Assembly: GCA_965603515.1 (NCBI GenBank) | Contig: CBFDDH010000001.1 | Coordinates: 80,568 to 144,567 of the forward strand | Reading direction: 5' to 3' | DNA length: 64,000 nucleotides | Origin: an uncultured bacterium | Lineage (GTDB): Bacteria; Hydrothermota; Tepidihabitantia; SM23-42 | In this document: one piece after another, positions 32,952 to 64,000 of the stretch | How positions within the stretch are numbered: position 1 is the first letter of the stretch | How the letters are laid out: the number at the start of each line of letters is the position of its first letter | Made by a program: the position numbers and the translations under genes | The notes under the pieces: model-generated | The model's database searches: none | What the model saw: only the letters and a program-made list of their open reading frames with translations | Told to the model about the DNA's origin: nothing

Positions 32952-32953
32952 TA

Positions 32954-35217: not shown

Positions 35218-36012
35218 CTATACTTTGTTCCATTTCGGTTTTCTCTTGTCAAAAAATGCTGCCATCCCTTCCTGACCTTCATCAGAGATACGCAATCGCG
35301 CAATTACCTCAGCAGTATATTCTCTTGCCTTATCAAAGGGCATCTGCGCAACATTGCGCAATAACTCCTTGCATTTAGTGATCGCCTCTGGACCACTGGA
35401 TATTAATCTACTGACCAGTTCGTCAACATATTTATCGATTTCTTTTAACTCAACGACCGCATTAACCAACCCGGAATTAAATGCCCTTTTGGCGGTCAAC
35501 CTTTCACCGGTTAAAAAGAATTCACGACATTTACCTTCACCGCATTTTTTCATTACGTAAGGTGAAATGCATGCCGGAATAAGACCTATTTTCACTTCGC
35601 TGAAACTGAACTTGGCTTGGTCTGCAGCAATGGCAATATCGCATACTGCAACAAACCCAGTGCCACCACCAATTGCGACACCGTTAACTTGAGCGATTGT
35701 CGGTTTTGGTGAAGTATAGATTTTATAAAACATGTCAGCTAGTTTTAAAGACCCTTTCAGATTATCTTCATAAGAATAATCCTTGACCCGGCGCATCCAG
35801 TTCAGGTCAGCGCCCGCACAAAAAGACTTACCTTTACCAGTTAGAATGACCACCCGTACGTCGTTGTTCTCGGCGATACAGTCAAAAACCTCAATCAACT
35901 CCTTTATCATTATGTCATTGAAGGCGTTATGAACATCCGGACGGTTGAAAGTCACCTTTGCTACTTTGTTTTCGATATCATACAAAAGTGTCTGCAGGTT
36001 TTCTCCTCGCAT
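35218..36012 (-). CDS. enoyl-CoA hydratase/isomerase (methylglutaconyl-CoA hydratase-like)
   Basis: 264 aa; crotonase fold, oxyanion hole region VNGVAIGGGTGF. Confidence 0.7.
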   Translation of the reverse strand: MRGENLQTLLYDIENKVAKVTFNRPDVHNAFNDIMIKELIEVFDCIAENNDVRVVILTGKGKSFCAGADLNWMRRVKDYSYEDNLKGSLKLADMFYKIYTSPKPTIAQVNGVAIGGGTGFVAVCDIAIAADQAKFSFSEVKIGLIPACISPYVMKKCGEGKCREFFLTGERLTAKRAFNSGLVNAVVELKEIDKYVDELVSRLISSGPEAITKCKELLRNVAQMPFDKAREYTAEVIARLRISDEGQEGMAAFFDKRKPKWNKV

Positions 36013-36090
36013 AAACTATATCCCCCTATTTCTTAATTACGAATTTCAAATCAGAAATGCCAAATTGAAGCATTGAGGCTTTGACATTTG

Positions 36091-36420
36091 TCATTGATTA
36101 TCTTCTCCTAGGGTTTTTGTTCGAGTCGGCTCAACGAGCAAAATCCAGGCAGGTTTTTTTGCACGCGAACGGTGCCGCGTCCCCTTTTCTACCAGAAAAC
36201 CTTCATTCTCTCTGAGCTCGACTGCGCCTTCTTCTGTATCAATGAAAATCTTGCCTTTGAGTACTAAAAAGAATTCATCCTCATCGCGATGCGTATGCCA
36301 GTTGTAAACACCATGGATTTTTGCAATACGCAAAGCAGTATCATTAATATAGGCAATATCCTTAGGTTGCCACGGGTCTCTGACATCCTTAATAATATCC
36401 TTAAGTTTTATTTTTTTCAT
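36091..36420 (-). CDS. cupin domain protein
   Basis: 109 aa; two-motif cupin with His ligands (HTHRDEDEFF... H). Confidence 0.55.
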   Translation of the reverse strand: MKKIKLKDIIKDVRDPWQPKDIAYINDTALRIAKIHGVYNWHTHRDEDEFFLVLKGKIFIDTEEGAVELRENEGFLVEKGTRHRSRAKKPAWILLVEPTRTKTLGEDNQ

Positions 36421-36440
36421 TGCACCCCTTTTTGCAGTAA

Positions 36441-36540
36441 TGGTTATTGGGTTAGGGGTAAGATACTAGATTTCAAGCATCCATACCTATCTTCTATCTT
36501 TTTTTGTAGCATCCAAACCTAAACCCATCTTCTATATGTC
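36441..36540. repeat. family 1 element copy C
   Basis: tggttattgggttaggggtaagatactagatttcaagcatccata...catccaaacctaaacccatcttctatatg. Confidence 0.75.
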
Positions 36541-36542
36541 GA

Positions 36543-38150
36543 TTACATTCGGAAAATTCCAAATTTGTGGTCAGGAATTGGCGCATTGAGTGCCATGGCA
36601 ATGGCTAAACCAAGTAGCTGTCGTGTATCTAAAGGATCGATAATTCCATCATCCCACAATCGAGCAGTCGAGAAATAGGCACTTGATTCGTTCTCGTACT
36701 TAACCAAGATGGGGCTTCTTATTTCTTCTATCTCTTTAGGCATAGGCTCTTCACCCTTTTTCGTCAAAGCCCTCACTTTGATATCAGTCAAAACACTTGC
36801 AGCTTGTTCACCACCCATGACACAAATCCTCGCGGTTGGCCACATCCAGAGAAGTCGCGGATCATAAGCCCGTCCGCACATGCCATAGTTACCAGCGCCG
36901 TATGATCCACCTATTATGACCGTGAACTTGGGCACCTGGGCGTTAGCTACCGCGTGCACCAATTTAGCACCGTCTTTCGCAATACCCTGATGCTCGTACG
37001 TCTTACCGACAATAAAACCCGTGATGTTCTGCAGGAAAAGCAATGGGATTTTCCTTACTGCGCACATCGTAATAAAATGTGCACCTTTTTGAGAAGATTC
37101 AGAAAACAAAACTCCGTTATTCGCAAGGATGCCGATCGGATAACCCATGATGCGGGCAAAACCGCAGACAATAGTTGGTCCGTACAATTCCTTGAATTCA
37201 TGGAATTCACTAAGGTCAACCAGACGTGCAATAATCTCTCTCATATCAAAGGTCTTCTTAGGATCCCTGGGGATAATCCCATACAGTTCTGATGGATCAT
37301 ATGCTGGCTCTTCTGGCTCTTTCCTTACAAGCGGGAATTTTGACAACACACCTAAATTCTCCACGATATTACGGGTGATTTCAATGGCGTGTTCGTCACT
37401 GAACGCATAGTGGTCAGCGACACCAGAGATACGACAATGCACATCAGCACCACCTAAATCCTCTTCACTAACAACTTCACCAGTTGCCGCCTTGACCAAA
37501 GGAGGTCCGCCAATATAGATAGTACCCACTCCTTTAACAATGACCACCTCATCACTCATCGCCGGTTGATACGCACCACCGGCAGTACAGAACCCCATAA
37601 CCACAGATATTTGAGGGATATTTTCAGCTGACATTCGCGCCTGGTTAAAAAATATCCTGCCGAAATGGAAGCGGTCAGGAAATGTTCCGACCTGGAGCGG
37701 CAAAAATATACCTCCTGAATCAACAAGATATATACATGGCAGGCGATTTTCCATTGCAATCTCTTGCGCGCGAATATGCTTCTTTATGGTTTCCGGAATA
37801 TATGTCCCACCTTTCACCGTTGCATCGTGGGCAATGACCATAACTTCTCTGTTGTGGATAACGCCGATACCAGTAATAATTGCTGCTCCTGGATGACCAT
37901 TATCATACATATCCCAAGCTGCCAACGGATTCAATTCAAGAAAGGGCGTATCCGGATCAAGAAGAAGGCGTAGCCGCTCACGCACAAAGAACTTACCGCG
38001 GTCCTTATGCTTCTTATGCATATAATCAGGACCACCCTTTTTCACCGATGCAAGGCGTTCCTTCAAAACCCTCACTGCTTCTTGCATAGCTGCTTTGTTC
38101 TCTTTGTATTCAGCGCTGTTTACGCTTACTTTTGATTCTATTTTAAACAT
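36543..38150 (-). CDS. acyl-CoA carboxylase carboxyltransferase subunit (3-methylcrotonyl-CoA carboxylase beta-like)
   Basis: 535 aa; two crotonase-like CoA-carboxyltransferase domains; N-terminal region resembles MCC beta ([27 protein letters not shown]). Confidence 0.8.
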
Positions 38151-38253
38151 AATCTCCTTCTAAATCCTAAACACTATTATTTAAACTTGATTGTTGATTT
38201 ATGAGTTTGAATCTTTGGGATTTGTTTGTCATTTGGTATTTGTAATTTGGATC
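38151..38253. repeat. family 2-related spacer (tttgg arm)
   Basis: gaatctttgggatttgtttgtcatttggtatttgtaatttggatc. Confidence 0.4.
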
Positions 38254-38643
38254 TTATGCCAATACTGCCTTATAACCATAACAAATAATCCCGGTTTGTC
38301 CTTCTGTATACAACTTTCTAAAAACAAACTTCACTTTCTTACCGATTTCAAGGTCCTTTGGCTCACAATCAACGACCTGAGTTGTAAGCCGGACACCGTT
38401 GTCTGATTCAACGATAGCGATCGCATAGGGAACCTGCGTAGCAAAGTCTGCTGGTGCTACCCTGATCATTGTATAAGAAACAATTGTTCCAGTTTCTGAC
38501 AACTTTGTTTTATCAAATCCTTTGGACCCGCAAGCCGCGCATACCAGGCGGGGAGGAAAAAACAATTTACCACATTTCTTACACTTGGCAGCTTCGAGCC
38601 GGTATCTCTGAGGCATCTCTCTGTGATATCTCGGTGATGGCAT
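38254..38643 (-). CDS. DUF35 Zn-ribbon/OB-fold protein (thiolase/HMG-CoA synthase partner)
   Basis: Start at MPSPRYH with SD AGGAGG; CKKCG...CAACG zinc ribbon followed by OB fold. Confidence 0.7.
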   Translation of the reverse strand: MPSPRYHREMPQRYRLEAAKCKKCGKLFFPPRLVCAACGSKGFDKTKLSETGTIVSYTMIRVAPADFATQVPYAIAIVESDNGVRLTTQVVDCEPKDLEIGKKVKFVFRKLYTEGQTGIICYGYKAVLA

Positions 38644-38741
38644 GTAACCTCCTTTTAGAAACAAATACCTAAAAGTCCAAAAATCCAAAATACCTAAAGA
38701 AAAATACCAAACAAATCTTAGGCATTTAGGTGTTTAGTTAT
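38644..38741. repeat. family 2 AT-rich element
   Basis: aaatacctaaaagtccaaaaatccaaaatacctaaag ... cttaggcatttaggtgtttag (latter shared with 42360-42382). Confidence 0.5.
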
Positions 38742-39890
38742 TTATATTAGTTTGAATATATGTGTCACGGATGATGCTCCTGAACCACCCATATTCTGAG
38801 TCAATCCTATCTTTGCGTTCTTCACCTGACGCTTGCCAGCCTTGCCACGTAACTGTTCAACCACCTCAACAACTTGCGCAATACCAGTAGCACCAACCGG
38901 ATGCCCCTTTGATTTCAAGCCGCCCGATGGGTTGACTGGAATCTTACCTTCCAAAGCGGTATTCCCCTGCTCTGTAAAAGGACCACCTGTGCCTTTTTCA
39001 GTAAAACCCAATTCCTCAATAATGCAGATCTCGGCGATCGAGAAACAATCATGGACCTCAGCCACATCAATCTCTGATGGCTTAACACCAGCCATCTTAT
39101 AGGCAACCTCACCTGATACTTTAACCGCTTTCAAAGCAGTTATGTCTTCGCGACTGTGCAGGGCAAGTGTATCAGTGGCCGCACCTGAACCGAGTATCTT
39201 AACCAACGGTACTTTCAGCTGCTTGGCAAAATCAACTGATGTGAGAACAACGCATGCTGCGCCATCAGAAACCGGTGAACTGTCGAGCACCGTCAGCGGA
39301 TCAGCAACCAATGTCGCATTCATGACTTGTTCAAGCGTGACTTCTCTTTGGAATTGGGCATTGGGATTCATCGCACCGTTATGGTGATTTTTTACTGATA
39401 CTGCAGCCAACTGCTCCCTCGTTGTGCCGTAGCGATGCATATGGGCTCGAGCGATCAAAGCGTAAAGGCCAGGAAAAGTCACGCCTTGATACACCTCATA
39501 TTCCTGATCGGCTGCCGTAGCAAGCGCGTAAGTAGCATCAGCGCCGTCATTCATCTTTTCAACACCACCGACCAAAACTACATCACTATGACCTGAAGAA
39601 ATTTCAAAAAGACCGAGTCTCAACGCCATACCACTTGAACAACACGCTGATTCAACACGCATCGCTGGTATCGGAGCCACGCCCAGATAATCCGCCATCA
39701 AAGCACTGATGTGTTCCTGACCAACAAAAAGTCCTGGGGTCATTGCACCAACATACATCGAATCAATATGATCCACACCTGCATCATCGATCGCCTTTAG
39801 GGCAGCTTCAACGAAGATGTCCCTCAGAGACTTTTCCCAGAGCTCACCAAATTTGGTCATTCCACAACCAATTACTGCAACTTCTCTCAT
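38742..39890 (-). CDS. acetyl-CoA acetyltransferase, archaeal-type thiolase
   Basis: Start at [15 protein letters not shown] with SD; thiolase catalytic Cys region, GHPVGATG C-terminal motif; ORF track N-extension rejected. Confidence 0.75.
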
Positions 39891-39900
39891 ACCAGCCTCC

Positions 39901-40947
39901 TTATTCGGACATTCTGATCTTACCCCGATACTTGGCGTACTGTCCATAATCAAGGTAGATACGATTGTTCTCAAGCATCTCTTTGAGCTTCGCAGCTTTA
40001 TCGCGCACTTCATCAATTCGATCAGTCATCTTAAATATAAATGCATCGCTACCTGCACCTGAACCAAAAGAAACGAGCATTATCAACTCACCTGGTTTGG
40101 CAATATCGAGCGTCGCAGAAAACCCAGTGGGTGACGAGCCTGAATAGGTATTACCCATTAATGGAACTATCCAACCCGCGTCAATCTGTTCCTTGGTAAA
40201 TCCCAATCTCTTAGCCACGGCTAATGGAAATTTACCATTTGGCATGTGGAAAATCGCGTGGGCAAAATCGCTGGGTTTATAGCCGCTTTTATCAAGAATT
40301 GCCTTTGCCGCACCCAACTCATGTTTGAAATAAGCAGGCTCGCCAGTGAATCGCCCACCATGAAGCGGATAAAACGCACCTTCTCGGCGCCAGAAATCAG
40401 GTGTATCTGTTGTATAAGAAAACGTATCCAGGACCTCAGCAATAATGCCTTCTTTTCCGAAAATGAATGCCGAACCGCCGGCTGCGGCAGAAAATTCAAG
40501 GGCATCACCTGGTGCACCCTGCGAAGTGTCAGCACCAATGGCGAGTGCATACTTTACAAGATCAGCCTTTACCAAACCATGGGCAACAAACATTGCTTCG
40601 GTGCCTGCCTTGCAGGCAAATTCATAATCCGCTATATGGACATTCGGCACAACACCCAAAGCCTCAGCCACTACAGTACCAGATGGTTTCACGGCATAGG
40701 GATGTGATTCTGAACCGATGTACAATGCGCCGATCTCAACCGGGTCAATATTAGCTCTTTTTAGCGCATTACGTGCAGCTTCCACTGATATGGTTATCGT
40801 ATCCTCATCCATTCCAGGCACGGTCTTTTCCTTGAGCATCAGACCTCGTTTTACTGTCTCGGAATCTCTGCCCCACTGATGGGCAATTTTCTCAACCTTA
40901 ATCCGATATCTTGGTAAATAAGAACCATAGCCAACAACGCCAACCAT
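39901..40947 (-). CDS. hydroxymethylglutaryl-CoA synthase (archaeal/KAS-III-like type)
   Basis: 348 aa; [17 protein letters not shown]-terminus, catalytic Cys in EFACKAGT context, typical size of archaeal HMGCS; forms thiolase/HMGCS/DUF35 trio. Confidence 0.7.
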
Positions 40948-40964
40948 TAGACCTCCTCACCAAA

Positions 40965-41070
40965 TGGTTATTGGATTTGGGTTAGGATGCTGGATATAAT
41001 CAATAAATAAAATCTAGCTTCCAAACCCATCTTCCATCTTTTTTCTAGCATCCAAACCTAAACCCATCTT
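40965..41070. repeat. family 1 element copy D
   Basis: tggttattggatttgggttaggatgctggat...tctagcttccaaacccatcttccatctttttt ctagcatccaaacctaaacccatcttctata; internal tandem sub-units. Confidence 0.75.
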
Positions 41071-42240
41071 CTATATTTTAGATAGGGCTTGTTCTAAATC
41101 AGCAATCAGATCATCAACATGTTCAAGACCAACCGATATTCTAACAAAACCAGGATTGATCCCGCACTCTCGCAGCTCTTCATCTGAATACGTTGAATGG
41201 GTCATTGAAGCGGGATGCTCAATGAGTGTATCTACGTCACCCAGACTCACTGCAAGAATGCACAACTCTACTGAGTTCATTATTGTCTTTCCAGCTTCCT
41301 TACCACCCTTCACATCAAACCCAATCATGCCACCAAAATCGCTCATCTGTTTCTTTGCTAATTCATGATCCGGGTGCGAGGTAAGACCAGGGTAATAAAC
41401 CTTCTCAATCTTGTCATGCTTTTCAAGATACTCTGCGATCTTCATGGCAGTTTCACAGTGTCGGTCCATTCTCACAGCTAAGGTCTTTAGACCACGCAGA
41501 ACAAGCCAAGCATTAAAGGGTGAATTACAGGCGCCGATCTCTTTTGCGTCTTCCCAAAGGTGATGCATGAAATCCTTTTTCCCAACGACAACTCCACCTA
41601 TGATATCGCCGTGCCCACTAAAATATTTAGTCATTGAATGAAGCACGATGTCAGCACCGAGTTCTACTGGTCTTTGGAGATATGGAGTAGCAAAAGTATT
41701 GTCAACACACAGCGGGATATTTCTGGCGTGGGAGATCTCTGAACATCGGGCGATATCGACAATCTTCAAAGTCGGATTTGCCGGCGTCTCAGTAAAGATC
41801 AAACGCGTATTCTCCTTAATACAAGAACCCAGTTGATCTGCATCTGCCGTATCACAGAATGTCACCTCAATACCCATCTTTGGTAGAATGCTCTTGAATA
41901 ATGCAAAAGTACCACCATAGATGGTATCATCAGAAACAACGTGTTCACCGGTTTTAGTTAGTGTCACAACGACGTTAAAAATGGCAGCGAGACCAGATGC
42001 AAAAACCACCCCGGCCTCAGTAGATTCCAACAAAGCAATCTTGCTTGCCAGAAGATCGGTCGTCGGATTGCTAAGTCTTGTATAGATATGACCTTTTTCC
42101 TCTTGCTTGAAAAGACGCGCACCGTGTTCAGCGTTGCGGAATGCAAAAGTCGATGTTTGATAAATCGGCGGCGCAAGAGCACCGGTTTCTTTATCAGGAT
42201 GCTGACCACCGTGTACGATCTTTGACTCAATATGCATCAT
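41071..42240 (-). CDS. Cys/Met metabolism PLP-dependent enzyme (methionine gamma-lyase / cystathionine gamma-synthase family)
   Basis: 389 aa; PLP lysine region SMTKYFSGHGD, fold-type I gamma-family. Confidence 0.75.
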   Translation of the reverse strand: MMHIESKIVHGGQHPDKETGALAPPIYQTSTFAFRNAEHGARLFKQEEKGHIYTRLSNPTTDLLASKIALLESTEAGVVFASGLAAIFNVVVTLTKTGEHVVSDDTIYGGTFALFKSILPKMGIEVTFCDTADADQLGSCIKENTRLIFTETPANPTLKIVDIARCSEISHARNIPLCVDNTFATPYLQRPVELGADIVLHSMTKYFSGHGDIIGGVVVGKKDFMHHLWEDAKEIGACNSPFNAWLVLRGLKTLAVRMDRHCETAMKIAEYLEKHDKIEKVYYPGLTSHPDHELAKKQMSDFGGMIGFDVKGGKEAGKTIMNSVELCILAVSLGDVDTLIEHPASMTHSTYSDEELRECGINPGFVRISVGLEHVDDLIADLEQALSKI

Positions 42241-42389
42241 TCCTCCCTATTGCAAACACCTAAGAATCCAAAATTCCCAAATTCTTCACCCTGAGGCTGA
42301 TCCACCTCGGGCGGAAAATTAGTGCTCTGATACACTGATGTTCTGATAACATAATATTCTTCACTTTAGGCATTTAGGTGTTTAGGTAT
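42241..42389. repeat. family 2 element with twin-hairpin core (42288-42318)
   Basis: aaacacctaagaatccaaaattcccaaa ... ccctgaggctgatccacctcgggcggaaaat ... tttaggcatttaggtgtttaggtatctagg; inverted arms about 15 bp. Confidence 0.55.
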
Positions 42390-42800
42390 CTAGGCATTTT
42401 TGTCTTTTTCGGTTAATTCAATCAAAACACCACCCATATCCTTTGGATGGATAAATGCTATCTTGTTCCCCCCCGCGCCAATTCTCGGAACCTCATCGAT
42501 CAACCGGACATTGTGACTCTTCATCTCGGCTAGTACCTTCTCAATATCATCAACCCGAAAACACAGATGATGCAATCCTTCACCCCTTTTTTCTATGAAT
42601 TTAAAAACCTGGCTCTCTTCACTTGTCGGTTCTACTAATTCAATATGGGTTCCGCTGATATCCAACTTGGCTACTTTGACCTTTTGATCCTCAACCTCTT
42701 CGAGATTCGCCAAGCCCAAACCCAACGCATCTTTCCATACATACAATCGTTCTTCAATAGATTTAACTGCGATGCCTATATGATCTAGTTTCATATTCAT
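42390..42800 (-). CDS. methylmalonyl-CoA epimerase (VOC/glyoxalase family)
   Basis: 136 aa; paired beta-alpha-beta-beta-beta modules with His/Glu metal ligands (HIGIAV...HIELVEP...HLCF...ELTE). Confidence 0.7.
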   Translation of the reverse strand: MNMKLDHIGIAVKSIEERLYVWKDALGLGLANLEEVEDQKVKVAKLDISGTHIELVEPTSEESQVFKFIEKRGEGLHHLCFRVDDIEKVLAEMKSHNVRLIDEVPRIGAGGNKIAFIHPKDMGGVLIELTEKDKNA

Positions 42801-42917
42801 CTTAAACCCTTAACACTATCATGCTGAACCATGGACTGAATTCATTTCGGGCTTGTTTCAGCATCACATCCATTGCACGTCCATTATATTTCATTGTAAA
42901 CTATCTTCTACCTACTC

Positions 42918-44213
42918 TCACAGCAATTTCCTTTTCTTCGCTTCTTCTTCAAGTACATTGCGGAAATCCGGATGAGCTATGGAAATAAGCGCCTCGGCAC
43001 GCTGGCGCAGGTTCTTGCCGTGTAAACTTACAACACCGTGTTCAGTAGCAATATAGTGAACATCTGCCCGGGTCGTCACCACACCCGCACCGACCTGTAA
43101 GGTGGACACAATCTTAGATAATTTACCACCTTTAGCAGTCGAAGGTAAAGCGATTATAGGTTTACCACCTTTGGATTGAGCGGCTCCCCTTATAAAATCG
43201 AGCTGACCACCAAAACCTGAATAGATCCTTGTGCCGATAGAATCCGAGCACACCTGACCAGTAAGGTCGACTTCTATGGCAGAATTTATCGCAACCATCT
43301 TTTCGTTTTGCCCGATTATATAAGGATGATTTGTGTAATTGCATGGGTGGGTCTCAAATACTGGGTTATTATCGATAAACTCGTAGATCTTTTTGGTTCC
43401 CAAATAAAATGTTGCAATAATCTTACCGGTATGCAGGGTTTTTTTCGAACCGGTAACTACACCAGCTTCAATAGCCTCGATTATACTATCTGAAACCATT
43501 TCAGTATGAACCCCGAGGTCTCTTCTATCAAACATAGCTTTGAGCGCGGCATTCGGGATCCCGCCGATACCCAACTGGACAGTGGAACCGTCTTCGACCA
43601 AACTAGCGACATTCGCGCCGATTTTCTTTTCAACATCGGTGAACGGAATGGGCTGCAGCTCAGGCAAGTCCTTTGAAATCTCAACTATCTTGGACACTCT
43701 TGATGCGTGAATGAACGAATCACCCAGAGCACGCGGCATCTTCTCATTGACTTGGGCGACCACGATCTTAGCTGATTCTGCAGCACCTTTTGAAGCCAAA
43801 CATTCAACACCATAACTCATAAAACCGTGTTCATCAGGTGGTGATAGATGCATAAAAGCCACATCGACCGGCAAAAGACCTTTATAAAAAAAACTAGGTA
43901 TCTCATAGAGAAAAACCGGAATATAATCTGCTTTACCAGCATTGACTGCTGCACGGTCAGCCGGACCGACGAAAAGTGAGTTGTGCCGGAAATGACCTTC
44001 CATACCGGGCTTTGACAAAGGTTCATCACCGAACAACAACACATGCGCAAGTTCAACATTATGCAGTTCATCCTTTCGCTTCTCAAGCGCATCCATCAAT
44101 CCAAAAGGAGTTGCTGCATTACCACTGACATAGATCCGGTCATTACTCTTAACAACCGAAACAGCCTCATCAATAGAACATTTTTTTCCTTTGTAATCGT
44201 CGAACCAGCTCAT
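42918..44213 (-). CDS. acetyl-CoA hydrolase/transferase family CoA-transferase (4-hydroxybutyrate/succinyl-CoA:acetate type)
   Basis: 431 aa; two-domain CoA-transferase fold, catalytic Glu region; typical of propionate/succinate CoA-transferases. Confidence 0.75.
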   Translation of the reverse strand: MSWFDDYKGKKCSIDEAVSVVKSNDRIYVSGNAATPFGLMDALEKRKDELHNVELAHVLLFGDEPLSKPGMEGHFRHNSLFVGPADRAAVNAGKADYIPVFLYEIPSFFYKGLLPVDVAFMHLSPPDEHGFMSYGVECLASKGAAESAKIVVAQVNEKMPRALGDSFIHASRVSKIVEISKDLPELQPIPFTDVEKKIGANVASLVEDGSTVQLGIGGIPNAALKAMFDRRDLGVHTEMVSDSIIEAIEAGVVTGSKKTLHTGKIIATFYLGTKKIYEFIDNNPVFETHPCNYTNHPYIIGQNEKMVAINSAIEVDLTGQVCSDSIGTRIYSGFGGQLDFIRGAAQSKGGKPIIALPSTAKGGKLSKIVSTLQVGAGVVTTRADVHYIATEHGVVSLHGKNLRQRAEALISIAHPDFRNVLEEEAKKRKLL

Positions 44214-45298
44214 ATTTTGTACTCCTCCTTGACGACACCACGCTCAACATAAATACCGTGTTTTAAAGCATAGTTCTCTTTCAAAGTAGCTTCAATACCT
44301 TTTTCAGTTAAGATCTTAAGAAACGGATAGATCCCTGAACTGATTGTGTGTGTCGCAGTTCGAGCAACGAGCGTTGTCGCGTTCGGCATGCAGAAATGAA
44401 CCACCCCGTTAACCATGTAGATAAACTGACCGCTTGGAGAGATCTTCGACGTCTCAGAACAACCACCCTGGTCAATAGAGAAATCGATCAAAACCGCACC
44501 AGGACGCATTGAACTCACCATCTCTTTCGTAATGAGAATCGGTGAGCGTTTACCTGGTTCCAGCACAGCACAAATCACAACATCGGCAAACTTGAGAAGT
44601 TTTTCTATATTGTGTTTGGTAGAAAACATTGTGGTGATCCGGCTGCCGCTGGTTTGGCATACCAGACTATCGAGCCTGTCACGAACAACATCCAGTACAT
44701 AAACATTGGCACCAGAAAAGGCAAAAGATTTTGCAGCATTACAGCCTAAAGTACCAGCACCCAGGATCACGACTTCAGCTGGTGGGATACCAGCTATGCC
44801 ACCCAGTAGAATACCTCTTCCCCCACCTGGTGATTCTAATAATCTACCAGCGATCTGCACTGAAAGTTTACCAGCTATCTCACTCATCGGTATAACGACA
44901 GGAAGTCGACCATCCTCATTTTGCATTATTTCATAACCGATAATGGTCATTTTTTTGTCCTGAACAGTTTTAACAAAAGCTTTGCGAGCGGTGACCATAT
45001 GGATAAAACCCATTAAGATCTGCCCCTCATTCATATACTGGTATTCTTCTTGTTGAGGTCTTCTGACCTTCAGGACAATATCTGCCCGTCGATAGACTTC
45101 TTCCTTTGAATAAACAATAGTTGCTCCAGCTTTTTCATAGTCTTCGTCTAGGAACCCTGCACCTTCACCGGCTTTTGATTCAACATAGAATTTCGCGCCG
45201 TATAACATAAGTTCCTTTGCTGCCATAGGAGAAAAACCAACTCTATATTCCGGCGTGTTTTTAAAAGGCGGAATTTCTCGAGGAATACCGAACATCAT
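44210..45298 (-). CDS. ald: alanine dehydrogenase
   Basis: 362 aa; AlaDH/PNT N-domain and Rossmann GAGTLGCNAA; 4-nt overlap with CoA-transferase gene. Confidence 0.75.
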   Translation of the reverse strand: MMFGIPREIPPFKNTPEYRVGFSPMAAKELMLYGAKFYVESKAGEGAGFLDEDYEKAGATIVYSKEEVYRRADIVLKVRRPQQEEYQYMNEGQILMGFIHMVTARKAFVKTVQDKKMTIIGYEIMQNEDGRLPVVIPMSEIAGKLSVQIAGRLLESPGGGRGILLGGIAGIPPAEVVILGAGTLGCNAAKSFAFSGANVYVLDVVRDRLDSLVCQTSGSRITTMFSTKHNIEKLLKFADVVICAVLEPGKRSPILITKEMVSSMRPGAVLIDFSIDQGGCSETSKISPSGQFIYMVNGVVHFCMPNATTLVARTATHTISSGIYPFLKILTEKGIEATLKENYALKHGIYVERGVVKEEYKI

Positions 45299-45317
45299 TC
45301 AAAACCTCCTTGCTAAA

Positions 45318-45425
45318 TGGTTATTGGGTTAAGGTTAGGACGCTGGATTTCAAACATCCATAGTCAAACCTGTCTTCTATCTTTCTCTAGTTTCCAAACC
45401 CATCTTCCATCTTTTTTTTAGGTAT
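45318..45425. repeat. family 1 element copy E
   Basis: tggttattgggttaaggttaggacgctggatttcaaacatccatagtcaaacctgtcttctatctttctctagtttccaaacccatcttccatctttttttta. Confidence 0.75.
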
Positions 45426-46976
45426 CTAAAATATCGATCTTTCCTTATATTCACCATGGACATCCCTTAGTGTATCTGATATTTCACCAATAGTAGCATA
45501 GGCTTTCACGCACGCCAAGATTGGTTCCATCAAGTTCTCATTGTCAATTGCTAATCCCTCTAATTTTTTCAGCAGCGATCTTACCTTTAGGTTATTACGC
45601 CTAGCTTTGACACGTTTAGTCCTTTGCAGCTGTTTCTTCAAGGTTTTAGGCGAAACCCTCATTGTTGTGAACTTCCTCCCTTTATCAGAAGACACGAACT
45701 TGTTTACGCCAATCACACTTATATCATCTTGCTCAATAGCTTTTTGATACTCATACGCACTGCGGTGAATTTCTTCCTGAAAATATCCGTTTTCAATAGC
45801 TACCAGGGCACCACCCATTGAGTCAATCTTATCCAGATAGTCGTTCACCTGCTCCTCTAATCTGCTAGTCAACGATTCAACATAGTAGGATCCAGCCAGG
45901 GGATCAATAACTTCCGGGATCTTACTTTCATAAGCGATCATCTGTTGAGTACGTAATGCCAATTTCACTGATTCTTCGGTGGGCAGGGTCAAGGCTTCAT
46001 CGCGCGAATTCGTATGGAGACTCTGGGTCCCGCCCAGAACTGCGGCGAGTGCCTGTAATGCAACACGTATCGCATTATTATCAGGTTCCTGGGCAGTCAA
46101 TGTTGAACCGGCAGTCTGAGTGTGGAATCGAAGCATCCTCGATTTTGGATTCTTCGCATTGAATCGCTCTTTCATGACACGCGCCCAGATCCTCCTGGCC
46201 GCTCTGAACTTAGCAATCTCTTCAAAAAAATTATTGTGTGCGTTAAGGAAAAATGAAATACGCGGCGCAAATGAATCCACATCAAGTCCACCCCGTTCAA
46301 TTGCATATTGCACATAAGTCATTCCATTTGCGAGTGTGAAAGCAAGCTCTTGTACTGCTGTCGCACCAGCTTCTCTTATGTGATAACCAGATACTGAAAT
46401 GGTATTCCACCTGGGCAGGGACTTACTGCAATATTTCATGATATCGACCGTAATCTTTATCGATGCTGCAGGTGGATATATGTAAGTGCCGCGCGCAATA
46501 TACTCCTTGAGGATATCATTCTGAACCGTACCGGATAGTCTCTCTTTTGGCACACCCTGCTTTTCGGCAACTGCGATATACATTGCCAAGAGAACTGCTG
46601 CGGTGGCATTGATCGTCATCGACGTACTCACCCTGTCAAGCGGTATTCCTTTAAATAATATCTCCATATCTTCAAGTGTATCAATGGCAACACCGGTCTT
46701 ACCCACCTCACCAGCGGCAAGTCTATGATCTGAGTCATAACCCATCTGGGTTGGTAAATCAAATGCAACGGATAAACCTGTCTGCCCCTGTTTCAGTAAA
46801 TAACGGTAGCGACGATTCGACTCTTCTGCAGTCGCATAACCGGCATACTGCCGCATAGTCCATAGCCGACCCGTATACATACTTGGATATACGCCGCGTG
46901 TATAAGGAAATTCACCCGGGTTACCCAAATCTTTTTTGTAGTCTATATCTTTTATGTCATCAGGAGAAAAAAGCAT
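45426..46976 (-). CDS. methylmalonyl-CoA mutase family catalytic (TIM-barrel) subunit, copy 1
   Basis: 516 aa; [34 protein letters not shown] motifs; no B12-binding domain in this polypeptide. Confidence 0.85.
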
Positions 46977-46984
46977 AATTCAGC

Positions 46985-47002
46985 GCAGTATCATTTTCAT
47001 TC
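46985..47002. repeat. 17-bp motif gcagtatcattttcattc (isolated copy between mutase and BCCP genes)
   Basis: Matches motif array flanking four-helix-bundle gene. Confidence 0.5.
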
Positions 47003-48989: not shown

Positions 48990-48998
48990 AGTTTAAAA

Positions 48999-49090
48999 GC
49001 AGTATCATTTCATTCGCAGTATCACGCCACCCTTTTTCAATGAGATGGGGTTCGCAGTATCGTTCATTCTGAACTTGCAGTATCACCTTC
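48999..49090. repeat. array of four gcagtatc(a/g)tttcattc motifs
   Basis: gcagtatcatttcattc gcagtatcacgcc ...gcagtatcgttcattc ...gcagtatcacc. Confidence 0.6.
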
Positions 49091-49111
49091 GGCTCGCCAT
49101 AAACTAAATAC

Positions 49112-49498
49112 TCATGAAGAATAACGCCTCCTATTTTTCGGCTTTTTAATAAGTGATTTATCAAAGGCAATTAGCTTGTAATACTCTTTTTCAATTAATG
49201 GCTCAGCAATTAAATAATCATCTTTGGTGGTATAATTTAGAGGAATCCCAATTTTCAAGACCCCGTCGACTTCTTGTAACGAAGTAATTGATCGGTTGAT
49301 GAAAACACTAAAATCTTTATCAGTATGACGACCACTACCTTCAGCAATGTTCAAAGCTATAGATACTACTGCTCTTTTACCTTGTGATGTTAGTCCATAT
49401 TTCTCATCTTTAGGGAACTCTTCGAGCAATTTATAAACAGCTTTAATTAATTCAATTGCTAACTGCCAGATTTCTGAATCTTCGTATTTAAATTTCAT
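49112..49498 (-). CDS. four-helix-bundle protein (23S rRNA intervening-sequence protein family)
   Basis: 128 aa; hallmark EKYGLTSQ.RRA.VSI..NIAEG.GR segment; inserted between biotin carboxylase and carboxyltransferase genes. Confidence 0.75.
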   Translation of the reverse strand: MKFKYEDSEIWQLAIELIKAVYKLLEEFPKDEKYGLTSQGKRAVVSIALNIAEGSGRHTDKDFSVFINRSITSLQEVDGVLKIGIPLNYTTKDDYLIAEPLIEKEYYKLIAFDKSLIKKPKNRRRYSS

Positions 49499-49530
49499 TG
49501 TTTAAGCGAATAAATGATCCTGCGCCTCCT

Positions 49531-49550
49531 GCGAATGAAATAATACTGCG
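49531..49550. repeat. inverted copy of gcagtat-tttcattcgc motif
   Basis: gcgaatgaaataatactgcg = reverse complement of cgcagtattatttcattcgc; right flank of four-helix-bundle gene. Confidence 0.55.
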
Positions 49551-49572
49551 AGCGTAGCGATCCTGCAATTAT

Positions 49573-51120: not shown

Positions 51121-51208
51121 ACGCTTACCCCCTGCATACCTTAAACGTTAAACCACAAATCCCAAGCACCAAATTACAAACAATACCTAAATTACGAACA
51201 TACTAAAC
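51121..51208. repeat. family 2 AT-rich element
   Basis: caaatcccaagcaccaaattacaaacaatacctaaattacg ... catttggaatttttg. Confidence 0.4.
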
Positions 51209-52122: not shown

Positions 52123-52575
52123 CTATTTTTTCCTAGCACTTCCCGTTTTTTTTGATTTGCGCGGTTTTGTTTTCCTGATCTTGGCTTTTACATTATCTGT
52201 AATCCACTGAATGATCTCGGTCGTTGGTGTACCTGGACCAAATAATTTCTTCACACCTTTTTTCTCGAGTTTCTTCATGTCTTCGCGAGGGATTATCCCA
52301 CCGCCGATAACGATAATAGCCTTTGCCTGTTTCTTCTCAAGCAAAGACAGCACTTTGGGAAAGATCGTCATATGAGCACCAGACAATATGGATAAACCGA
52401 TTATGTGAACATCTTCTTGTATGGCAGCTTCGACTATACTCTCGCAAGTCTGGTGAAGACCCGTATAGATAACTTCCATGCCTGCGTCGCGCAAGGCAGC
52501 AGCAACGACCTTAGCACCGCGGTCATGTCCATCAAGACCAGGTTTCCCAACCAGAACCCGAATTCTTCTTGTCAT
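52123..52575 (-). CDS. cobalamin-binding domain protein (methylmalonyl-CoA mutase small/B12 subunit)
   Basis: 150 aa; DxHxxG B12-binding motif (GLDGHDRG), Rossmann-like fold, basic C-terminal tail. Confidence 0.8.
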
Positions 52576-52597
52576 AAATCATCCTCCTTCATCAAAA

Positions 52598-52697
52598 TGG
52601 TCATTGGGTTAGGGTTTAGCCCGCCCCGCTTCGCGGCACGAGGTCGGGGAAACGAGAAAAAAATCCAGCATCCAAACCTAAACCAATCTTCCATCTA
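52598..52697. repeat. family 1 element copy F with GC-rich 36-bp internal insert
   Basis: tggtcattgggttagggtttag then cccgccccgcttcgcggcacgaggtcggggaaacg then aaaaaaatccagcatccaaacctaaaccaatcttccatcta. Confidence 0.7.
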
Positions 52698-54329
52698 TTA
52701 GAATATGATCGGTTCATGGTATTCACCGAATTCTTCTTTCAATGTACCACACATTTCACCAAGCGTGGTATAAGCGCGTACGCAATCCAGAATCTTAGGC
52801 ATCAGGTTAGACCCATCAGCTGCGGCTTTGTGTAATCTCCCGAGTGTTTCTTTCACTTTCTTATTATTGCGTTCTCGTTTGATGCCTTTAAGTGCCTTCA
52901 CCTGATCACGTTCAACTTGTTTTGGAATTCTCAGAAGCTCCATTTCTGCCTTGCCCTCTTCTTCGAGTATGTTCACTCCCACATGATATTTCTCTTTCTT
53001 CTCCAAACTCTTCTGGTATTGATATGCACTTCTCGATATTTCGCGTTGAAAAAATCCCTTATCAATCGCTTTAACCACACCACCCATTTTATCTATCGCA
53101 GCAAAGTACTTGTAAGCTCCTTGCTCAAGTTCATTAGTCAAAGTCTCAACGTAATATGAACCACCGATTGGGTCAATAGTATTGGCAACACCCGTTTCAT
53201 AAGCTATCAATTGCTGGGTGCGCAAAGCGATCTTGACCGCGTTTTCAGTTGGCAGGGCATAGGTTTCATCCATAGAGTTGGTGTGGAGTGATTGGGTTCC
53301 TCCGAGTACTGCCGCGAGTGCCTGGAAAGCAGTACGCATGATATTATTCTGTGGTTGTTGAGCAGTCAACGTGCAACCAGCGGTCTGGGTGTGAAACCTC
53401 ATCAAATATGAACGGGGGCTTTGAGCATTATACTTATCCTGCATAAGGCGTGCCCAAATCCGCCGCGCTGCGCGGTATTTAGCGATCTCCTCAAAGAAAT
53501 CAAGGTGTGAGTTGAAGAAAAAAGAGAGCCTTGGGGAAAACTTGTCGACTGATAGACCTGCTTTTATACCGTACTCAACATAAGTTAAACCGTTCTTCAG
53601 GGTAAAAGCAAGCTCCTGCAGCGCAGTAGAACCAGCTTCTCTTATGTGATAACCAGATATCGAAATTGTATTCCATCTAGGGACATGCTCGGTACAATAT
53701 GCCATAATGTCGGTAATTATACGCATCGATGGTTCTGGAGGGTATATCCACGTCTTTTGAGCTTGGTATTCTTTCAGCATATCATTTTGAATAGTTCCGG
53801 TTAGAAACTTCATCGGCACACCCTGTTTTTCACCGACCACGATGTACATGGCCAGAAGCATTGCGGCAGGCGGGTTAATCGTCATTGAAGTCGATATCTG
53901 GTCGAGTGGTATGCCATGAAATAATATCTCCATGTCTCTAAGCGTATCAATCGCAACCCCACACTTACCCACTTCTCCTCGTGCAAGTAAGTCATCAGAA
54001 TCACGACCGTACAAAGTGGGAAAATCAAAAGCAACAGAGAGCCCAGTCTGTCCATGGTTCAGAAGGTACTTGTAGCGCTTATTTGTGTCCTTTGGTGTAC
54101 CAAAGCCCGAGAATTGACGCATTGTCCAGAGCCGACCCCGATACATGTTCGTGTAGACCCCGCGCACATATGGAAATTCACCCGGGTAACCCAGATCTCG
54201 GTCATAATCAAAATCTCTAATGCTATCTGGTGTATACAACGTTTTCGTCACTCTCCCAGAGGCTGTCGTGAATTTCCCATCTCGCTCCTTGCAGGTCTTA
54301 AGCTTCTTGTCCCAAATATCTTTCTTCAT
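52698..54329 (-). CDS. methylmalonyl-CoA mutase family catalytic subunit, copy 2
   Basis: 543 aa; [34 protein letters not shown] motifs; paralog of 45426-46976 product. Confidence 0.85.
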   Translation of the reverse strand: MKKDIWDKKLKTCKERDGKFTTASGRVTKTLYTPDSIRDFDYDRDLGYPGEFPYVRGVYTNMYRGRLWTMRQFSGFGTPKDTNKRYKYLLNHGQTGLSVAFDFPTLYGRDSDDLLARGEVGKCGVAIDTLRDMEILFHGIPLDQISTSMTINPPAAMLLAMYIVVGEKQGVPMKFLTGTIQNDMLKEYQAQKTWIYPPEPSMRIITDIMAYCTEHVPRWNTISISGYHIREAGSTALQELAFTLKNGLTYVEYGIKAGLSVDKFSPRLSFFFNSHLDFFEEIAKYRAARRIWARLMQDKYNAQSPRSYLMRFHTQTAGCTLTAQQPQNNIMRTAFQALAAVLGGTQSLHTNSMDETYALPTENAVKIALRTQQLIAYETGVANTIDPIGGSYYVETLTNELEQGAYKYFAAIDKMGGVVKAIDKGFFQREISRSAYQYQKSLEKKEKYHVGVNILEEEGKAEMELLRIPKQVERDQVKALKGIKRERNNKKVKETLGRLHKAAADGSNLMPKILDCVRAYTTLGEMCGTLKEEFGEYHEPIIF

Positions 54330-62053: not shown

Positions 62054-62827
62054 TCATATGAGTCCTTTTTCCTTGATAATACCTGCGACTTTTGCTGAAA
62101 TCTCATCCATGCTTCCAGAAAGAATTTCCGCACGCTTGCCGACCGGTGGTGTGAATAACTCTTCAAGACTCGCATTAGCTTGAATACCTGTCGGGTCAAT
62201 GTCAGATGCACCGATCACTTTGATTTCTTTTTTTGCGGCGCGCCTGATCGCAATGAGCGAAGCATATCGTGGTTCATTGATACCGGTCTGGATCGTAAAA
62301 AGAGCGGGCAGACTCATCTCGAGGTGTTCTATTAAACCGCCTTCGAGTTCTCGATGTACCTGGGCTTTTGTATCCTGGATGTCAACTTTGGCAACCAATG
62401 TGGCATGTGGTATGCCAAGTAATTCAGCAAGTATTACACCAACCTGTGAATAGTAATCATCGGTCGCAATACAACCGGTAAATATGACATCGGATTTCAG
62501 ATCTTTGATGGCTGCTTTTAGAAGCTGGGCTGTTTTATACCCATCAAGTTCTTCAAAATCCTCTGCTTTTATCCGTATCGCACTATCTGCGCCTTTTGCC
62601 AAAGCAATACGCAATGTATCTTCCACCTCAATAGTTCCTAAAGAGACCGCGGTAAGAGTGCCGCCGGATTTTTCTTTTAAAAGAATTGCTTCTTCAAGGG
62701 CATAAGTGTCAGATTCATTCATGTCAAAGGTCAAACGGTCCTTTATTATATCCTTACCAGAAGAATCAATTTTCACATCAGCTTCAGCAGTCTGCGCAAC
62801 TCTTTTTATGCAAACAATAATATCCAA
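62054..62827 (-). CDS. etfB: electron transfer flavoprotein beta subunit
   Basis: 257 aa; MDIIVCIKRV N-terminus typical of EtfB; TTG start codon 6 nt after AGGAGG. Confidence 0.85.
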   Translation of the reverse strand: MDIIVCIKRVAQTAEADVKIDSSGKDIIKDRLTFDMNESDTYALEEAILLKEKSGGTLTAVSLGTIEVEDTLRIALAKGADSAIRIKAEDFEELDGYKTAQLLKAAIKDLKSDVIFTGCIATDDYYSQVGVILAELLGIPHATLVAKVDIQDTKAQVHRELEGGLIEHLEMSLPALFTIQTGINEPRYASLIAIRRAAKKEIKVIGASDIDPTGIQANASLEELFTPPVGKRAEILSGSMDEISAKVAGIIKEKGLI

Positions 62828-62847
62828 AATAACCTCCTAACAATGCT

Positions 62848-62941
62848 GGTTATTGGGTTAGGGTTAGGACACTGGATTTCAAGCATCCATACTCAAGCCT
62901 GTCTTCTATCTTTCTCTAGCTTCCAAACCCAAACCCACCAT
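62848..62941. repeat. family 1 element copy G (most regular copy)
   Basis: tggttattgggttagggttaggacactggatttcaagcatccatactcaagcctgtcttctatctttctctagcttccaaacccaaacccaccatcta. Confidence 0.8.
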
Positions 62942-64000
62942 CTATCTTGTAAGTTCTCTTGCTATAACAATCTTCTGGATTTCCGATGTCCCCTCATAGA
63001 GCTCAAGAATCTTGGCATCACGGTAGATCCTTTCAATAGGATATTCTTTTGTATAACCATAACCACCGTGAATTTGAACTGCCTTGCGAGCAACATCTAC
63101 AGCCATTGAAGCACCATAATACTTTGCCATTGCCGATTCCAGCGAGAACCTCGTCATCCCTTTGTTCTTACAGTGCCCGGCAAAGTAAACGAGCATCCTT
63201 GCGGCTTGAATCTCAGTTGCCATTTCAGCAAGCATTGACTGCACCATTTGGAAATTACATATCGGCTGCCCGAATGCCTTGCGCTCTTTTGAATATCGCA
63301 CCGCCTCATCGAGTGCGCTCTGGGCAATACCGACCGCCTGCGCACCGATATCAATCCTTGAGACATCGAGCGTGTTCATACAAATCTTGAAACCTTCACC
63401 TTCTTTACCCAATAGGCTTTCTTTAGGTATTCTTACATCCTCGAAAATCATTTCACAGTTAGCTGTTGCCCTAATACCCATCAAATCCTCATGCTTACCA
63501 AGACTAAACCCCGGGATATCTCTCTCTACGATAAAGGTGCTTATACCCTTGTGTTTCAATTCCTTGTTAGTATAGGCAAAAACCACGTAGACCCCTGCTT
63601 CACCGGCATTTGTGATAAATCTTTTTGTGCCATTAAGGATATAGGCATCACCGTCCAACCGTGCCGTAGATTCCATAGCCGCCACATCAGACCCAGCATT
63701 CGGCTCGGTTAAACCAAATGCCCCGAGTTTCTCACCTTTGCAGAGCAACGGTAGATATTTCTTCTTCTGCTCTTCGTTGCCAAACTGCATAATAGGATAG
63801 CCAACGAGCGAATTGTTAACTGCGACAATAACACCAGTCGATGCGCAAGCCCTGGAAATCTCTTCGACCGCAATAGCAAGTGAGATGTAATCAAAACCAG
63901 CACCACCGTATTCCTCCGGAATAATAATGCCAAGCAGACCCAGCTTGGCCATCTTTTTGATATTATCCCAGGGAAACTCAGCAGATTTGTCTATATCTGG
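62942..64000 (-). CDS. acyl-CoA dehydrogenase (short/branched-chain type), N-terminus beyond window end
   Basis: C-terminal 336+ aa of ACAD fold incl. catalytic Glu region YEGTSEIQKIVIAREL; ORF open to position 64000. Confidence 0.85.
   Translation of the reverse strand, partial: PDIDKSAEFPWDNIKKMAKLGLLGIIIPEEYGGAGFDYISLAIAVEEISRACASTGVIVAVNNSLVGYPIMQFGNEEQKKKYLPLLCKGEKLGAFGLTEPNAGSDVAAMESTARLDGDAYILNGTKRFITNAGEAGVYVVFAYTNKELKHKGISTFIVERDIPGFSLGKHEDLMGIRATANCEMIFEDVRIPKESLLGKEGEGFKICMNTLDVSRIDIGAQAVGIAQSALDEAVRYSKERKAFGQPICNFQMVQSMLAEMATEIQAARMLVYFAGHCKNKGMTRFSLESAMAKYYGASMAVDVARKAVQIHGGYGYTKEYPIERIYRDAKILELYEGTSEIQKIVIARELTR

Follow-up and report, generated by a model that had tools for sequence, protein, structure and literature searches.

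Probable exchangeable palindromic repeats between stop codons and ribosome-binding sites in gene arrays of WOR-3 bacteria

Seven copies of one repeat in a minus-strand gene array

The DNA analyzed here is a 64,000-nucleotide stretch of contig CBFDDH010000001.1 (GenBank assembly GCA_965603515.1, an uncultured WOR-3 bacterium), referred to below as the window. Its assignment to candidate division WOR-3 agrees with the homologues of its proteins. It has a base composition of 43% G+C and is occupied by a near-continuous array of minus-strand genes, which a Pfam scan of ~20 of its open reading frames (ORFs) assigns to acyl-CoA, amino-acid and B12-dependent metabolism. Our subject is a small repeat element, called type A throughout, that lies in spacers between these genes. 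An earlier, sequence-only reading of the window had picked out seven copies, and their positions were confirmed by terminus patterns, by hidden Markov models (HMMs) of the two arms and by a covariance model; the arm HMMs and, separately, the covariance model found exactly seven two-armed copies. All seven are on the minus strand, that is, on the strand of the genes, and none is within a gene.

Read on the plus strand, the left terminus TTGGGTTAGGGTTAGGA has seven matches in the window with up to 3 mismatches (0.21 expected). Six of them mark element copies and the seventh is the complementary arm of the copy at 62848, while the copy at 29538 escapes this pattern through a 1-nt deletion. The right-terminus pattern has five matches against 0.00 expected. 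The claim that every copy begins and ends with the same sequence thus holds to within 1-4 mismatches or one indel and is not true to the letter.

Two copies have the minimal form (all coordinates are for the minus strand). Copy 1, with one 5' arm (5474-5538), is matched by both arm HMMs and scores 62.8 bits with the covariance model; its predicted fold has an energy of -26.3 kcal/mol (z -2.83), and it separates a polysaccharide-deacetylase gene (5536-6273) from a TPR gene (4726-5460). Copy 2 (29533-29607; 74.4 bits in sense versus 39.3 in antisense, fold z -4.16) follows a 3-hydroxyacyl-CoA dehydrogenase gene (29611-30948) and precedes a thiolase-like gene (28275-29519; Pfam). Four copies carry two 5'-arm modules. 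Copy 3 (36436-36536; 63.5 bits, right-terminus pattern and arm HMMs) has in addition an inner GGATGCTTGAAATC hairpin and lies between carboxyltransferase (36543-38150) and cupin (36091-36420) genes. Copy 4 (40960-41073), which has an AT-rich loop and is supported by the right-terminus pattern, the arm HMMs and the covariance model, stands between a Cys/Met pyridoxal-phosphate enzyme (41071-42240) and an HMG-CoA-synthase-like gene (39901-40947). Copy 5 (45313-45412; arm HMMs, covariance model and repeat comparison) leads from a methylmalonyl-CoA-mutase-like gene (45426-46976) to alanine dehydrogenase (44210-45298), and copy 7 (62842-62944; left- and right-terminus patterns, arm HMMs and covariance model) from an acyl-CoA dehydrogenase (ACAD; 62942-63952) to EtfB (62054-62827, TTG start). 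In copy 6 (52593-52697; right-terminus pattern, arm HMMs and covariance model), located between the methylmalonyl-CoA mutase large-subunit gene (52698-54329) and that of the B12-binding subunit (52123-52575), the inner 3' arm is split by a nested GC-rich mini-hairpin, CCCCG(N16)CGGGG, at 52624-52649. The copies at 5475 and 45318 are the most divergent ones of the window. Pfam bears out the downstream genes as they had been listed before: TPR, thiolase-like, cupin, ACP_syn_III_C (HMG-CoA-synthase-like), alanine dehydrogenase, B12-binding and ETF-beta.

Element architecture and distance to the start codon

Type A is ~60-115 nt long. In mRNA sense it starts with one to three copies, at ~36-nt spacing, of a G/U-rich 5' module, (A)GAUGGAAGAUGGGUUUAGGUUUGGAUGCURGA, which are followed by a variable loop and by a single C/A-rich 3' arm, UCCAGCAUCCUAACCCUAACCCAAUAACCAUUU, that closes the hairpin. 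By direct reading of the consensus, the arms AGATGGAAGATGGGTTTAGGTTTGGATGCTGGA and TCCAGCATCCTAACCCTAACCCAATAACCATTT are ~33-nt inverted repeats with ~25 of 33 positions complementary; the 14-nt terminal inverted repeat noticed earlier is therefore real and part of a longer one. The interior, described before as tandem sub-units of ~22 bp, is instead made of the 5'-arm module at its ~36-nt spacing, and Tandem Repeats Finder calls no tandem arrays. The likeness of the G-rich end to telomeric (TTAGGG)2 is incidental, as the arms are simply mutually complementary GGGTTW/CCCWAA hexamer repeats. We rejected the telomere or G-quadruplex interpretation because the G-runs lack the necessary length and stand opposite a complementary arm.

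The boundaries of the element are tight on both sides. The stop codon of the upstream gene overlaps the element in three window copies (a TAG at the 5' end of copies 1, 4 and 7), lies 1-3 nt upstream in two and 11-14 nt upstream in the other two. At the opposite end, 17-22 nt separate the AAT[AG]ACCA terminus from the start codon in 7/7 window copies, much as the sequence-only reading had proposed, and in 12 copies of related genomes; a GGAGG-type Shine-Dalgarno sequence (SD) is positioned 8-12 nt past the terminus, again where it had been placed. The 3-7 nt that link the element to the SD vary in sequence. The idea that the element itself carries the SD was rejected, since paralogs of 93% identity diverge immediately past ACCA. 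An origin of the upstream gene's C-terminus or stop codon from the element was rejected as well: the C-termini are native whichever repeat family follows, and the type of stop codon varies.

The only reading frames found in type A by direct reading are non-conserved ones of 4-17 codons, which open at the AUG of GAUGGG. In most copies this AUG is at most 12 nt from the upstream stop codon (e.g. window 62936-62944). As neither frame nor peptide is conserved between copies, these frames are probably incidental, and a conserved micro-ORF was discarded as a candidate.

The CCCCG-N16-CGGGG mini-hairpin of copy 6 recurs inside type-A arms in three related contigs (L005 11552-11638, L072 3888-3986 and L071 322-419; L001, L002, L005, L024 and so on are labels of contigs from related WOR-3 genomes). 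It is optional, usually sits between GGUUUGG and AUGCUGGA, and is found in both orientations, the opposite one in L005, so it may be a separate nested mini-element.

Distribution in related genomes

In 227 kb of related WOR-3 DNA, the covariance model detects ~21 type-A copies at 13 distinct sites, none within a gene and all oriented like the gene that follows. Scored on the reverse strand, these loci reach much lower values (e.g. 39 bits versus 74 in sense). The start codon follows the terminus at 17-22 nt in 19 of the 21 copies. The other two are L035 10933-10998, in which an additional half-element is interposed, and L042 8122-8206, which lies between divergently oriented genes, ~150 nt away from the start. 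Two of the 19 have no stop codon ahead of them, as they are part of the leader (5' untranslated region, UTR) with which the ACAD-ETF operon begins (L071 322-419 and L072 322-428). According to the GC skew, all window copies are on the G-rich, presumably leading, strand.

A conserved palindrome resembling an operator, AUUAUGGUCAGC...GUAGCUGACAAUAGCGGUAGCUUAUU, occurs upstream of the same ACAD-ETF operon (L071 ~230-300, L072 ~230-300 and L073 ~330-400). It probably serves as a promoter or as the site of a regulator, and in 2 of the 3 genomes type A is found between it and the SD.

A strict 5'-arm pattern gave 3 true matches in 185,579 species genomes, all of them in the metagenome-assembled genome (MAG) GCA_964419565.1, and 7 true matches in 241 million metagenome records, besides the expected chance matches. 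These counts are lower bounds because the pattern misses the diverged copies of L071-L073, and for that reason we withdrew the interpretation of type A as a low-copy element of a narrow clade. Viral collections yielded no true type-A match.

Turnover at orthologous junctions

Synteny is conserved across the related WOR-3 contigs, so that orthologous junctions can be compared. The junction between the Cys/Met-lyase and the HMG-CoA-synthase-like gene (copy 4) has type A in the window, L024 and L005, an unrelated intercistronic hairpin (family 2) in L002, L049 and L051, the CA/GT-armed family 4 in L052 and a PF05635 ORF in L001. Between MCM516 and alanine dehydrogenase (copy 5), type A is present in the window and, diverged, in L052; L050 has family 3 instead, L005 retains a remnant, and the occupant in L001, L002, L024 and L051 is family 2. 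The ACAD to EtfB junction (copy 7) contains type A in the window, diverged type A in L071, L072 and L073, and family 2 in L070. Two junctions include relatives with an empty spacer: between carboxyltransferase and cupin (copy 3) type A is found in the window and only 20 nt in L005, and between two ACAD genes it is found in L072, is degenerate in L071 and is replaced by an empty 29-nt spacer in L073. The orthologue of copy 6 in L005 has conserved arms and an unrelated interior. In L052, a remnant TAGAAGATGGGTTTA is followed by another family, i.e. one site was occupied serially.

Type A is gained, lost and replaced at one junction between close relatives. The clearest case is the junction of copy 5 in the window and L001, whose flanking genes are 95-97% identical in nucleotides: identity is 95-100% up to the spacer on both sides, with the last ~40 nt of the upstream gene at 82%, and type A is exchanged for the unrelated family 2 over an interval that opens at the stop codon and closes 2-3 nt short of the SD. 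At least sometimes the change occurs by short-patch recombination. Copy 4 and its L024 counterpart are 91% identical, with the first 66 nt the same, although the flanking proteins are 79-87% identical and 4-fold degenerate sites only 38-47% (saturated). The tract of identity extends from -35, before the stop codon, to about +100 nt into the next gene, in coding DNA that is otherwise 57-80% identical to the window; judged from the alignment, the pattern reads as the signature of a short recombination tract. Type A also duplicates to new junctions inside one genome: paralogous window copies at non-orthologous junctions reach 93-97% identity, and copies 5 and 7 share 93% across 85 nt. This mosaic of occupants means that type A is dispensable at any given junction, interchangeable with other hairpin families and exchanged between lineages.

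RNA folding

The window copies fold as long imperfect hairpins with minimum-free-energy z-scores of -1.1 to -4.2 relative to shuffles. Folding is more favorable for the sense than for the antisense RNA in 18 of 21 copies. The predictions keep the SD free of pairing: the long stem that had been suggested at the base of the ribosome-binding site (RBS) is predicted as an arm-to-arm hairpin that does not close over the SD. Sequestration of the SD by the AACC terminus was also considered and rejected, as the pairing would involve just 4-6 bp and is not general. When the arms were aligned in collapsed form, 78.8% of the pairs were standard, as opposed to 26-55% with the partner slid by 1-3 columns. 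Copy-specific departures from Watson-Crick consensus pairs were of the G.U type in 16 cases versus 5 of the A.C type (p=0.027), which weakly supports a role of pairing on the transcribed strand.

A search of Rfam returned no match at gathering score in the whole window and none at E<=1 in positions 28,000-64,000, in keeping with the earlier impression that the family has no name. Neither sigma-70-like promoters nor intrinsic terminators were detected inside the four copies of the scanned 28,000-47,000 stretch, and a role as intrinsic terminator was dropped because no terminator-like site is found inside the copies there. A canonical terminator does exist elsewhere in the window, past the gene that ends at 16148.

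Other repeat families and neighboring features

At least four other repeat families fill spacers in the window and its relatives, and several of them bracket small ORFs (PF05635, PDDEXK_3). Family 2 is an intercistronic hairpin unrelated to type A (...CAGAUGGAAGCGGAUGCACACGGAAUUU...AAAUCCGUCUGCAUCUUAAUUUGCCGAUAGGCAAAUCCGUUUGCAUCUAUUUUUCCGAAGGAAAAAGGAGG) whose terminal small hairpin abuts the SD. It is found once in the window (30949-31056, minus strand) and in spacers of L002, L024, L049, L051 and L070, where it replaces type A at orthologous junctions. In L002 (20272-20841), a 129-aa PDDEXK_3 ORF of the GxxExxY type stands between family-2 halves at the carboxyltransferase to cupin junction. 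Family 4 is a long hairpin that pairs a periodic C/A-rich arm (CCAAAUUACAAAUCCCAAAU...) with its G/U-rich complement (AUUUAGGUAUUGUUUGG...), the arms being in reversed order compared to type A, with window spacers at 21760-22016, 33452-33595, 35105-35217, 38151-38253 and 51121-51208. Family 5 consists of an 8-nt-periodic arm, AUACCUAAACACCUAAAUGCCUAAA, directly after stop codons (window 38689-38741, 42372-42389 and 45413-45425). The last of these sites is a stub (ATACCTAAA...) ahead of copy 5, so we conclude that insertions occurred serially at that junction. Within family-4/5 spacers there is also a conserved 36-nt motif, UUUUCCRCCCGAGGUGGAUCAGCCUCAGGSUGAAGA, a small GC hairpin with no Rfam match, at window positions 31881-31916 and 42283-42318 (minus strand) and in L001 spacers.

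The PF05635 ORF of the window (49112-49498, minus strand; 128 aa, '23S rRNA intervening sequence'/Avd-like) is located between carboxyltransferase and biotin carboxylase genes and is bracketed by the inverted repeats GCAGUAUUAUUUCAUUCGCAG and CUGCGAAUGAAAUGAUACUGC together with iterations of GAUACUGCRA (49499-49572 and 48990-49111). The orthologous spacer of L002 has the repeats and no ORF. Similar ORFs occur in L001 (6911-7285), L024 (4014-4451) and L052 (16862-17224), each within a different hairpin family.

Two further features of the window are recorded here. An exact 85-nt direct repeat (290-374 and 4594-4678), built of CGTTAAGAT-like units with 9-nt periodicity, is found downstream of each of two distinct genes of the minus strand. 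At 38254-40947, genes for an HMG-CoA-synthase-like protein (ACP_syn_III_C), a thiolase and a zf-ChsH2/DUF35 protein are adjacent, which is an archaeal-type thiolase/HMG-CoA synthase/DUF35 trio in a bacterial candidate phylum.

Discussion

Type A colonizes the narrow space that separates an SD from the preceding stop codon (or 5' UTR) in long co-directional gene arrays of a WOR-3 lineage. We interpret it as an exchangeable palindromic repeat of the BOX/Correia/REP kind and put the probability of this interpretation at about 75%. The anatomy of a repetitive extragenic palindromic (REP) element or a miniature inverted-repeat transposable element (MITE), the co-orientation with genes and the adjacency to the SD, all pointed out in the sequence-only reading, are supported. 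In such a scenario, type A would be transcribed as part of the polycistronic mRNA, where the G/U-rich 5' arm may pair with the C/A-rich 3' arm into an imperfect hairpin of 20-35 bp that leaves the SD single-stranded. The hairpin would most likely act as a generic end-structure: it may block 3' exonucleases for the upstream cistron, be a 5' stabilizer of the downstream cistron or be a cleavage site for RNase III. That a stabilizing or processing role of this type has been selected is a tentative prediction, for which we would offer slightly less than even odds. The sense orientation and the 17-22 nt spacing would mostly reflect which insertions survive, namely those that leave the upstream ORF and the SD unbroken and fold harmlessly or usefully in the sense RNA, and some target preference may contribute to both.

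Several observations weigh against this interpretation. Covariation is absent: in the collapsed-arm alignment of 12 copies, 78.8% of positions are paired versus 79.8% after shuffling of columns (covariation score 0.097 versus 0.112 in shuffles), and among 20 sense copies aligned to the model, the values are 74.8% versus 75.5%, with 7 pairs showing double changes versus 7.4 in shuffles. The support for an RNA structure is consequently thermodynamic, and the helix is best described as a property of conserved inverted termini rather than as one maintained by compensatory change. The position of the two 5'-UTR copies next to an SD is not what a pure filter for short ancestral spacers would predict. 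The arms of orthologous type-A copies are 60-90% identical versus ~40% at the flanking 4-fold sites, which could mean purifying selection on the arms rather than recent exchange. On the side of mobility, no transposase is encoded among the ~20 Pfam-scanned window ORFs and no autonomous partner with matching termini was seen in this part of the genome (the terminus string for matching against the ends of insertion sequences and transposases is AGATGGAAGATGGGTTT...). No direct repeat is common to the flanks of the copies, and neither a target-site duplication nor a clean filled/empty pair could be defined between the window and the junctions of its relatives, orthologous sites being too diverged or occupied by other families. 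Finally, since all window copies are on the G-rich strand, an orientation linked to transcription and one linked to replication are inseparable here.

Some of these points would be expected of a dedicated cis-regulatory RNA, in which the hairpin and its AAUAACCAUUU tail form a selected device for translation initiation (a standby site, an RBS insulator or a closable stem) and the distance to the SD is functional. The spacing kept in 19 of 21 copies (two of them in 5' UTRs that no gene precedes), the strictly sense orientation, the excess of G.U over A.C among departures from consensus pairs and the conservation of arms beyond synonymous sites would all fit, and the orientation and spacing results agree with the check that the sequence-only reading had proposed. 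The covariation part of that check came out negative, the SD is free in predicted folds, the element-SD linker is not conserved, and the downstream genes (TPR, cupin, AlaDH, EtfB and others) have no obvious common regulatory logic. Moreover, the same junctions work with an empty spacer of 20-29 nt or with an unrelated family, even in a strain that is 95-97% identical. Type A does not behave as a conserved riboregulator, the proposal that its constant spacing marks an RNA dedicated to control of the RBS is not sustained, and we consider a cis-regulatory device unlikely. In view of the 5'-UTR copies and the better-than-neutral conservation of arms, type A may have a more specific tie to translation initiation, or its insertion may favor targets just 5' of the SD. 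If the arms instead worked at the DNA level, as sites for gyrase or nucleoid proteins (as in bacterial interspersed mosaic elements, BIMEs) or for a recombinase, or as G-quadruplex tracts, RNA folding would be irrelevant. The cassette-like replacement between fixed boundaries, the single orientation relative to the leading strand defined by GC skew and the four short G-runs (GG/GGG) of each strand, compatible with two-tetrad quadruplexes, are in line with this. The asymmetry between sense and antisense in wobble pairs and folding energy points to the transcript, though, the G-runs are just 2-3 long and opposite a perfectly complementary C-rich arm, and no recombinase gene was seen in the window. 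Integron attC cores (RYYYAAC/GTTRRRY) are absent and gene order is constant while the elements change; we rejected attC sites because the closest strings (GTTAGGG, GTTAGGA and ATCCTAAC) misfit the cores and the same gene is followed by different families. A DNA-level function is, in our estimate, very improbable.

A different origin would make type A and its sister families 'mRNA intervening sequences', that is, derivatives, now without an ORF, of selfish elements with flanking hairpins. They would home into the gap between stop codon and SD and be excised or cut by RNase III like the intervening sequences (IVS) of 23S rRNA, which would give separately stable cistrons. PF05635 proteins are otherwise known from 23S rRNA IVS and as the Avd protein of diversity-generating retroelements (PMC10053308). 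The sister hairpin families that enclose small ORFs between their arms in the same spacers suggest that the ORF-less hairpins derive from ORF-bearing selfish elements: the PF05635 (23S_rRNA_IVP, Avd-like) gene at 49112-49498 has an E-value of 1e-27 and is missing from the orthologous spacer of L002, further PF05635 ORFs occur in L001, L024 and L052, and a PDDEXK_3 ORF lies inside the family-2 element of L002. The stems, of at least 20 bp, are also long enough for RNase III. Nevertheless, no ORF-bearing copy of type A was found, the association of ORFs with hairpins is anecdotal (5 cases) and the PF05635 and PDDEXK_3 proteins have no known homing activity; our literature search on WOR-3 intergenic repeats or mobile PF05635 elements returned nothing relevant. 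We regard this origin as a little less probable even than a cis-regulatory device. In a broader proposal, the stop-to-SD gap of operons in the WOR-3 clade would be a niche reserved for at least five hairpin cassettes, type A among them, that can replace one another and are locked in orientation, some with Avd-like (PF05635) or PD-(D/E)XK ORFs between their arms. All would be selfish 'mRNA intervening sequences' that are cut by RNase III, home next to the RBS and have been co-opted as operon punctuation setting cistron-specific mRNA stability; this proposal is doubtful to about the same degree as the cis-regulatory one. If ORF-bearing relatives were indeed the mobile parents, the PF05635 and GxxExxY small-protein families would be tied to a concrete genomic behavior.

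As an exchangeable palindromic repeat, type A is of interest because knowledge of such repeats comes from a small number of cultivated pathogens, with candidate phyla hardly explored in this respect, and because its copies are confined to the sense strand and to sites immediately 5' of an RBS. The swapping of unrelated hairpin families at identical junctions of near-identical strains is a natural experiment on what an intercistronic spacer requires, and type A and its sister families are candidate natural 'insulator' or processing hairpins. Annotators of WOR-3 MAGs should expect frequent differences between strains, and perhaps breaks in the assembly, at spacers of this sort.

Comparison with known repeat systems

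Among known systems, the IVS of 23S rRNA with PF05635 ORFs are likewise hairpin-flanked insertions in transcribed RNA, and sister families of type A enclose PF05635 ORFs; type A itself has no ORF and is found in mRNA spacers rather than in rRNA helices. Enterobacterial repetitive intergenic consensus (ERIC) elements, or intergenic repeat units (IRU), of Enterobacteria and Yersinia are imperfect palindromes of ~127 bp in transcribed operon spacers with orientation-dependent effects on mRNA stability (PMC3049150, PMC10969869), and both ERIC and BOX alter the stability of co-transcribed mRNA (PMC3049150, PMC10969869). ERIC elements differ in that they occur in both orientations, are not tied to the SD and have no sequence relation to type A. 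REP, BIME and REPIN elements of Enterobacteria and Pseudomonas share with type A the character of extragenic palindromes at gene 3' ends and between cistrons, with inverted pairs that form long hairpins, and different REP families occupy orthologous spacers in related strains (PMC3116915, PMC3337134). REP elements have a classic role as stabilizers of mRNA 3' ends, are mobilized by a RAYT (Y1) transposase, encoded by a single-copy gene, and have an imperfect palindrome of 20-40 nt as their unit, two of which in inverted order make a REPIN; type-A arms are G/T-only or C/A-only and pair only arm to arm, and since they are not self-palindromic, type A does not belong to REP.

The Correia element, a MITE of Neisseria, resembles type A in its ~100-150 bp length, terminal inverted repeats (TIRs), transcription with neighboring genes and strain-dependent presence (PMC2649163, PMC10969869), and its inverted-repeat hairpin is a substrate of RNase III, which alters the fate of the co-transcribed mRNA (PMC2649163, PMC10969869). 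It is distinguished by a 26-bp TIR, TA target duplication, promoter-generating ends, an integration host factor (IHF) site, both orientations and hundreds of copies. Type A has no sequence resemblance to it and, having neither a TA duplication nor a promoter in the scanned copies, is not a Correia element. The BOX elements of Streptococcus pneumoniae (boxA-boxBn-boxC), which are strain-variable and thought to act via RNA secondary structure (PMC3049150), are also small, non-coding, modular, gene-adjacent and co-transcribed, with terminal modules that pair and an internal module in variable tandem number (PMC3049150). Type A differs from them in having no evident sequence similarity, a repeated module that is the 5' arm itself, exclusively sense copies that end 8-12 nt before the SD, only ~20 copies so far and a WOR-3 host. 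With MITEs in general it shares terminal inverted repeats, a small size with no transposase or other conserved ORF, and dispersed copies with presence/absence polymorphism (7 in 64 kb; ~21 in 227 kb). We assign type A to none of the named families and class it as a new one among their kind: small non-coding elements with terminal inverted repeats, similar to BOX, Correia, REP and ERIC, with a predicted generic role as a hairpin, a description that we hold to have a somewhat better than even chance of being right in full.

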